In this document: in pieces, positions 14,520 through 15,691 of the stretch
Position numbering within the stretch: position 1 is the first letter of the stretch
Layout: every line of letters starts with the position of its first letter
From: an uncultured Candidatus Rokubacteria bacterium
Lineage (GTDB): Bacteria; Methylomirabilota; Methylomirabilia; Rokubacteriales; CSP1-6
Length of the DNA: 64,000 nt
Assembly (NCBI GenBank): GCA_963771355.1
Contig: CAVYTA010000006.1
Location: 2,690,859 to 2,754,858 of the forward strand
Direction of reading: 5' to 3'
The notes under the pieces: model-generated
The model's input: only the letters and a program-made list of their open reading frames with translations
Told to the model about the DNA's origin: nothing
Database searches by the model: none
Program-made: the position numbers and the translations under genes

Positions 14520-14573
14520 CCGGCGGCTCAAAAAGGTCCAGATGCGAGGCGGCGCCCGAGGGCCGCACGCGAG
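14520..14573. repeat. Left half of a ~125 bp palindromic (REP/MITE-like) element interrupted by IS110
   Basis: CCGGCGGCTCAAAAAGGTCC is an 18/20 inverted repeat of 15743-15762; GGCCGCACGC pairs with GCGTGCGGCC in the right half. Confidence 0.75.
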
Positions 14574-14588
14574 CGACTGTGTCGCGAG

Positions 14589-15521
14589 TCAAGCCAGTTC
14601 CCAACGACGGCCATCCCGGACCATGGCGTTGAGGATGACCAATAGCTTCCGCATTGCGGCGACCAGCGCCACCTTGCCGGGCCGGCCGGCGGCGACGAGA
14701 CGTTGATATTGCGCGGCGATCACCGCGTTGCAGCGGATCGCGGTGATCGCGGCCATGTAGAGGACGGTGCGAACCGCCGCGCGCCCGCCGCCGATCATGC
14801 GGCGTCCTCGGAACGTGCCACTGTCTCGGTTCAGGGGCGCAATACCCACCAGTGCCGCGATCCGGCGGCGATCCAGCTGGCCCAGTTCGGGAAGCTCGGC
14901 GATGAGCGTCTGCGCTGTCACATCCCCGACCCCGGGGACGGACTTCAGCACCTCCTCCCGCTCCCGCCAGATCCCGCTCCCGCGAATCGTCGCCCGCAAA
15001 TCGCGCTCGAGTTCCTGCAAGGCCGCCCGCAGCCACTCTCGGTGCGCGGCGATTCGCTGCCGGACCCGTGGCTCCCGCGCCTGCCGCTGCCGATTCGTCT
15101 CCGCCGCCAGCATCTCGACCAACTGGCGCCGCCGCACCACGAGTTCCGCCAGCTTCTGCGCCTGCTCGTCGGGCAGAGCCCGGACGGGGGGGCGCACCGC
15201 CTCGCCGAAAAGCGCCAGCATCTGCGCATCGAGGACATCGGTCTTCGCCAGGCGTCCCGTCGCTCGCGCAAAGTCTCGCACCTGTCGAGGATTGACCACG
15301 GCCACCGGCAGGCCCGCACCGGCCAGCGCCGCCGCGACCGGCACTTCGTACCCGCCGGTCGCTTCCAACACCACCAGGCGGGGGGCCAGCCCCTGCAGCC
15401 GCGTTACCAGGTCCTGCACTCCCGTCTCGTCCGCGGCCACCGCAAAGGTCTCTGCCTGCGGCCGCACATGGACGTCCAACCGCTTCTTGGCAATATCGAT
15501 GCCCACGATGATCTGTTCCAT
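14589..15521 (-). CDS. IS110 transposase (bridge recombinase)
   Basis: [31 protein letters not shown] (DEDD), PGVG, catalytic-Ser motif PLNRDSG, LYMAA; ATG at 15521. Confidence 0.95.
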
Positions 15522-15680
15522 GTCCCGTCCTTGCATGCGGGCTCCCGCGGCCCAAGTGACTGTTCGGGTTAACGATGGAACAGCGGACGGAGCACCGAGC
15601 TCGCGTACGGTCTTCGAGGACCCAGGCGTGTGCGGGCTTCCGTCCGCCTTACCGGGGCGTCGCTGACTGGCGCCCCCACC
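15522..15680 (-). ncRNA. Predicted bridge RNA
   Basis: 5' hairpin GGGGCG/CGCCCC; target loop closed by GCGGACGGA/TCCGTCCGC containing ACGCCT and ACGCGAG; donor loop containing ACAGTCACT and ATGCAAG, matching the flanks and element ends. Confidence 0.82.
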
Positions 15681-15691
15681 CAACATACAAG

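Follow-up and report, generated by a model that had tools for sequence, protein, structure and literature searches.

The locus described here lies within a stretch of 64,000 nucleotides from a Candidatus Rokubacteria genome (the window) and contains an insertion sequence of the IS110 family on the minus strand at positions 14572–15691, which measures 1,120 bp from core to core with both CT cores included. Read on the minus strand, the left CT core occupies 15690–15691 and the right CT core 14572–14573, the flanks are ACTACGC on the left and CGCGT on the right, and the two ends consist of the right donor TGTAT (15685–15689), which is the element's left end, and the left donor ACAGTCG (14574–14580), which is its right end and for which the IS621 donor served as comparison. 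The recombinase ORF is preceded by 170 bp and followed by 17 bp of the element, and this combination of a long left end, with its predicted RNA, and a short right end places it in the IS110 group rather than the IS1111 group by the criterion given in PMC11208160. The element splits an imperfect palindromic repeat of ~125 bp that belongs to the host. The left part of the repeat (15692–15762, minus strand) holds the left target CTACGC (15697–15692) and an inner hairpin, CGTAG-AGAGA-CTACG (15707–15693), while the right part (14520–14571, minus strand) holds the right target CGCGT (14571–14567). Two host genes flank the locus outside the element, an amidohydrolase identified by Pfam (15763–16956, minus strand), at whose TAG stop the repeat begins, and a convergent Nramp-family transporter identified by a family model (13056–14507, plus strand), the start of which is not fixed.

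Element ends and insertion site

A second copy of the element lies in the same genome at G000:C8:62168 and shows 0 differences from the window copy over 1,120 bp; the genome holds two IS110 genes. The flanks of the second copy differ from those in the window at several bases, and both copies interrupt the repeat at the same CT. That the copies are identical although their repeats have diverged suggests recent movement. A profile search of the genome for the repeat gave 20 hits, of which 11 are whole empty copies, most of them reading TACGC-CT-CGC, once 3 duplicates on the reverse strand and 6 half-hits (4 from the two occupied copies and 2 others) were left out. The empty copies read straight through the junction and fix the element ends. 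Neither the second copy nor the genome-wide palindromic repeat as target featured in the first-pass annotation. All the motifs listed by the first-pass annotation (cores, flanks, donor ends, guides, and promoter halves) were found at their places on the minus strand, and its assignment of the ends to the CT cores is borne out by the identical second copy and the empty repeats, in which the ends map to the cores and not away from them.

The same breakpoint was seen in public data. Contigs of 8/8 runs compared (4 RNA and 4 DNA, two of the DNA runs sharing a study with the possible source) carry a joint of position 14571 to 15690, which leaves out exactly 1,118 bp and is ambiguous by 2 bases; these joints may stem from paralogous empty repeats, so they fix the breakpoint and do not by themselves demonstrate excision. 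A circle-type joint was present in none of the contigs of these 8 runs, which is no evidence of absence given that contigs drop rare forms. The second copy, the empty repeats, and the contig joints make the empty target recoverable and show that insertion is precise at the short core.

The repeat also receives other insertions. The copy at G000:C6:1227588–1228912 is split elsewhere in the repeat by an IS3-like element, a family assignment made by eye from the translation, and a short insert matching the end of the IS3-like element is found in the repeat that holds the other IS110 copy (G000:C8, about 62130).

Recombinase

The recombinase gene (14589–15521, minus strand) encodes a protein of 310 aa with the domains PF01548 and PF02371. 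It scores 223 bits against NCBIfam NF033542 (cut-off 140) and matches the solved chains of IS621 and ISCro4 with E values of 3e-42 and 8e-43, respectively. Residues D9, E53, D95, and D98, together with S234 as the equivalent of the catalytic serine, align with the IS621 active site, and the DEDD and serine residues are all intact. Among titled records, the nearest homologue (86% identity) belongs to a Candidatus Rokubacteria genome, and the closest named recombinases, by the ISfinder names on annotated records, are ISMno7/ISHne3 (58% identity), ISMex17 (50%), and ISEc32 (47%), whose hosts are other than that of this element. The phylogeny table of PMC11208160 lists ISMno7/ISHne3 and ISMex17, and a search under these names with IS110 found no bridge-RNA paper, as judged by title or the start of the abstract. 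The recombinase had been called compact in the first-pass annotation, but its length is not special in a family of 300–460 aa in which IS621 is slightly longer.

Predicted bridge RNA and junction promoter

The left end is predicted to encode a bridge RNA of ~160 nt (15515–15675, minus strand), with its ends placed by analogy with IS621 and its fold drawn from an alignment and its covariation. It would consist of a 5' stem-loop near 15676–15654, taken from the single-sequence fold only, a target-binding loop (15647–15583), and a donor-binding loop (15581–15515), the last two both taken from the alignment fold. When the left end was folded as a single sequence it was no better than shuffles (z –1.14), whereas RNAalifold on 43 relatives (43 of 50 candidate left ends aligned) found both stem-loops unaided and left the guide loops open; the two-loop structure therefore rests on the alignment. 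In these 43 relatives a named IS621-like structure is paired in 92.9% of cells, with double changes in 20 of its 33 pairs, a value that 0/500 shuffles reached, and structures slid along the alignment are paired in 35–49%. The outermost donor stem is weaker, with 74% of cells paired in a ragged part of the alignment. The landmarks described for IS621 in PMC11208158, an A five bases ahead of a G in each half-loop, are present in 4/4 half-loops; the IS621 RNA sequence itself was taken from the supplement of PMC11208160. An IS621-type bridge-RNA architecture, as claimed in the first-pass annotation, is supported at the sequence level by two covarying stem-loops together with the guides and ends. 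Rfam at gathering scores gave no match in the element or the repeat; elsewhere in the window it identified two ordinary tRNA genes (24281–24353 and 33108–33180) and a class A RNase P RNA (35063–35473).

We also observed that the outer donor-loop stem (15581–15575 with 15521–15515), for which the 74% of paired cells applies, would pair with the start codon of the recombinase and could limit translation from read-through transcripts.

Contigs from two metatranscriptome runs cover the whole element evenly at a depth like that of the flanks, a pattern indistinguishable from DNA carry-over. One 130-nt contig of a relative covers the guide region only and at higher depth, and a DNA run peaks there too. 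Since such libraries can hold DNA and a DNA run shares the peak, these contigs do not demonstrate a bridge RNA.

The first-pass annotation had further claimed that circularization builds a promoter, and the joined ends do spell TTGACT-17 bp-TATGTT, in which the putative –35 half (14587–14592, minus strand) overlaps the TGA stop codon of the ORF and the putative –10 half (15682–15687, minus strand) lies in the left end. When the ends of relatives are joined, TTGAC precedes the –10 hexamer by 17 bp in 89/99 distinct left ends, a count in which the first two –10 letters were fixed by the search pattern and the –35 was left free. A promoter scan of the linear locus found 0 sites, as expected if the promoter is split between the two ends.

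Guides, register, and handshake bases

Four guides can be read in the two predicted loops, all on the minus strand. The left target guide ACACGCCT (15624–15631) has 8 nt, six plus the core, matches at 6/8, and was placed by the parse, by covariation, and by comparison with IS621. From sequence and covariation, the right target guide ACGCGAG (15600–15606) is complementary at 7/7 to CT-CGCGT, and the left donor guide ACAGTCACT (15555–15563) matches at 8/9, with an A facing donor G7. The right donor guide ATGCAAG (15530–15536), placed from sequence, is contiguous and matches at 6/7, with one G-T wobble at the place of IS621 G161.

Covariation between guides and flanks was examined across relatives. 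From 190 loci collected, 164 carry a full-length recombinase (26 were dropped for lack of a full-length match), and 75 of these were parsed and 89 were not; after L071 was removed as mis-parsed and L001 and L042 were added by hand, the set comprised 76 elements with 58 distinct guide pairs. On the left, guides match their own flanks in 27, 32, 43, 46, 49, and 50 of the 58 guide pairs at positions –6, –5, –4, –3, –2, and –1, against permuted means of 14.9, 16.0, 16.2, 25.8, 20.4, and 45.1, and on the right in 57, 57, 47, 44, and 44 pairs at +1 to +5 (permuted means 15.8–19.7). Flank position –7 does not covary with the guide base that faces it (10/58 versus 12.4 expected), and sliding the left register by one base leaves 130 or 140 of 348 matches compared with 247 unslid. 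Covariation at –6 to –1 and +1 to +5 and its absence at –7 indicate that the clade reads six bases to the left and five to the right of the core. The relatives are kin, so permutation p-values overstate significance, and the parse patterns assumed an IS621-like donor and core, so that conservation of these two is not an independent result; the position-by-position contrast with –7 depends on neither. The left donor is matched fully in 54/58 guide pairs, in a parse that assumed a similar donor.

Place, complementarity, and this flank covariation uphold the identity of the four guides given in the first-pass annotation, with one correction. The left target guide had been given as a 9-nt motif, CACACGCCT, at 15632–15624 (minus strand), and while its place and core-proximal match stand, its first C (15632) reads as a linker base, so that the guide has 8 nt, the left match is 6/8 and not 6/9, and the register, as judged from the sequences, is 6 + CT + 5. 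The element has three guide mismatches, at left target –6 and –5 and at donor position 7, and its working match is the 11-bp ACGC-CT-CGCGT. This 11-mer occurs 6 times in the genome, 3 times in repeats and 3 times in likely coding DNA, and the left side of natural sites reads (C/G)TACGC.

The A that faces donor G7 (15557) is seen only in this sub-lineage (L001, L042, and L081; 3/58 guide pairs), which also has the shortest right donor guide in the alignment. Two other elements carry duplicated ends, L006 with a left-end stretch repeated upstream of the left core and L012 with a duplicated right end, and these may be insertions into the elements' own guide- or donor-like sequence.

The parse also yields handshake guides that were absent from the first-pass annotation, namely CT in the target loop (15598–15599, minus strand), the C of which can pair with donor G7, and GA in the donor loop (15528–15529, minus strand), the G of which can pair with target C7. 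Across relatives, complementarity to donor position 7 holds for the target-loop base in 58/58 guide pairs, and the donor-loop base is complementary to target position 7 in 47/49, with 2 wobbles, although these positions hardly vary (1 and 2 double changes, respectively). By sequence, the handshake bases fit the position-7 rule described for IS621 in PMC11208158.

The target repeat and its hairpin

The 3' arm of the inner hairpin CGTAG-N5-CTACG serves as the left target. The repeat is widespread in the phylum, where 251 genomes were covered: its inner hairpin occurs in at least 91 of them, with more than 100 hits in one, and the repeat often starts at a TAG stop. The loop-closing pair of the hairpin takes a G-C form in 158 hits in 31 of the 251 genomes and a C-G form in 803 hits in 91, compared with 24 and 4 hits for the mismatched forms, and none of the 3 checked among the 24 was a repeat. 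Guides of the sub-lineage carry an A at this position and match neither form. Within the closest sub-lineage (at least 75% protein identity), 10/10 distinct sites are in this repeat at this CT, including L194, whose right guide reads CGCGC and yet whose site is CACCT, a poor fit within the repeat. Clade-wide, a perfect stem of at least 5 bp is found at the left target of 28/112 unique sites versus 1.6% and 3.2% in controls. Sites that fit the guide as well as the occupied ones are also found outside the repeat: with a crude coding mask (84%), the genome has only 13 unmasked non-repeat sites versus 3 empty and 2 occupied repeats, and 61 further sites in likely coding DNA, so that two insertions say little about preference.

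The genome, which is 99.8% complete, has 0 matches to the RAYT transposase PF01797, for which reason we call the repeat REP-like by shape only, and the DUF772 transposase PF05598 is likewise absent as an autonomous partner of the repeat. We found no paper in the open-access literature on IS110 or on this repeat in Rokubacteria or Methylomirabilota.

Related elements from other genera (L199, L200, L204, L205, L207, L209, and L210) are not in this repeat, and in their right guides we find CT-CAG, which is complementary to a TGA stop. Several of their sites are at gene ends or at opposite-strand stop/ribosome-binding junctions, which may be another safe-site strategy.

Discussion

We conclude from these sequence comparisons that the locus holds an intact IS110-group element, of which the genome has two copies, both at one and the same CT of a palindromic repeat of the host, and that the element very probably moves by bridge-RNA-guided recombination like that of IS621. 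The ends, the cores, the two copies, the catalytic residues, the covarying fold, the tracking of flanks by guides, and the fit of the handshake bases are observed. We now put forward a mechanism in which the circle, the RNA, and the activity of the element are modeled on IS621. The element would excise at its CT cores as a circle, the junction of which would build a sigma70-type promoter that drives synthesis of the ~160-nt bridge RNA. Recombinase dimers would then bind both RNA loops, with the donor loop reading ACAGTCG-CT-TGTAT and the target loop reading its site by means of the 8-nt left and 7-nt right guides, in practice ACGC-CT-CGCGT with the two outer left positions mismatched. Strand exchange would take place at CT and be driven forward by the position-7 handshake pairs. 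Lying between genes and present in many copies, the repeat would offer a safe place to land, and its small hairpin may contribute to the choice of target.

Two other readings of the element seem improbable to differing degrees. It might be a recent relic that no longer moves and whose guides have drifted, as could be argued from its three guide mismatches, its mere two copies, and the lack of a circle or RNA in public-run contigs, which drop rare forms. However, the two copies are identical while the host repeats around them differ, the ORF and catalytic residues are intact, and the donor-guide mismatch is shared with relatives of 82–97% protein identity that occupy several sites, and hence is old and tolerated; we therefore regard a relic as unlikely. 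We give less credence still to a 9-nt left guide, by which the true preferred target would be CACACGC-CT-CGCGT, near which the first-pass annotation had placed it, and natural sites would be three-mismatch compromises. IS621 does have a 9-nt left guide after C47-G48-U49, and ACACGC would be a better pairing partner for the guide of this element than the natural CTACGC. Against this, the base after the conserved CG is uncorrelated with flank –7, relatives inserted in this repeat have G, C, or T there, and the predicted 14-mer, like the 13-mer without its first C, has 0 occurrences in the genome. We also considered that the left guide might be read with a bulge in the DNA, AC[T]ACGCCT, and set this aside, since unbulged pairing from –6 to –1 accounts for the clade and the base concerned is G in half of the sites.

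A further question is whether guide pairing is all that selects the site. In the alternative, targeting would need two keys, pairing with the guide and the repeat's own small hairpin, as reported for ISPpu10 of Pseudomonas putida. The uniform use of the repeat by the sub-lineage in spite of some poorly fitting right guides argues for this, as do the preservation of the hairpin by a compensatory G-C/C-G change at a position that the guides do not match, the excess of stems over controls among clade sites, and the ISPpu10 geometry, which shares the 6 + core + 5 register and tolerates distal left mismatches. On the other hand, the repeat maintains the hairpin for reasons unrelated to the element, and a single ancient change may account for both forms. 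Moreover, 84/112 clade sites have no such stem, the stem only about doubles efficiency for ISPpu10 itself, and in the genome the 5 repeat sites face only 13 unmasked competitors outside repeats, with selection alone removing insertions from the 61 sites in likely coding DNA. We consider targeting by two keys to be possible but somewhat doubtful. A little more tentatively, the lineage may lock onto the host repeat by DNA shape as well as sequence, in that it would pair four to five left bases, skip the base that flips between G-C and C-G, and so serve both forms.

On the reading that we prefer, guided recombination as in IS621, the element is a clean new example of a known mechanism and leaves that mechanism unchanged. 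Bridge-RNA-guided recombination has been known since 2024 (PMC11208160 and PMC11208158), and according to PMC11208160 the left guides have eight or nine bases, longer right target guides also occur, and 85.7% of ISfinder IS110-group elements have a predicted bridge RNA; the targeting of palindromic repeats has long been known (PMC1525189). With IS621 and ISCro4/IS622 (PMC11208160, PMC11208158, and 10.1101/2025.05.14.653916; PDB 8wt6 and 9t56), the element shares the DEDD and serine recombinase, the long left and short right ends, the CT core, a junction promoter and two-loop RNA (both predicted here), and the flipped-A and G landmarks five bases apart. The donor is nearly the same (ACAGTCG-CT-TGTAT here versus ACAGTAT-CT-TGTAT in IS621), and IS621 likewise has a G-T wobble in the right donor guide, position-7 handshake pairs, and a palindromic-repeat target. 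The protein, in contrast, is distant from that of IS621 (about 150 bits), and a DNA search of E. coli genomes with the element gave no match. The left target guide has 8 nt here and 9 nt in IS621, the right target guide is naturally 7 nt here and 4 nt in IS621, and the right donor guide is a contiguous 7 nt here but a bulged 9 nt with two flipped-out bases in IS621; the donor-loop hairpin is shorter, and the target repeat and the host differ. ISPpu10 (10.64898/2026.03.19.712850) resembles the element in its six left and five right target positions around CT, in its mismatch-tolerant distal left positions, and in its use of a repeat with a ~5-bp hairpin, the 3' arm of which forms the left target; for ISPpu10 this hairpin raises integration about twofold. 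Its recombinase is distant, as judged by eye from domain rows, and its hairpin loop has 4 nt rather than the 5 nt found here.

Bridge recombinases are under development for large DNA edits. Of 72 orthologues screened in human cells, only one exceeded the luciferase detection limit (10.1101/2025.05.14.653916), which makes fully annotated natural systems useful candidates. For this element the target, donor, and guides are mapped, as are about 58 natural variants of the guides, and the right register (6 + CT + 5) matters for reprogramming it. Any role of the target hairpin can be tested directly. If the reading by shape is true, the naturally shorter donor loop would be worth testing as an editing scaffold, and the lineage would add a second and distant example of bridge targeting assisted by a hairpin, in a family of repeats that is itself undescribed.
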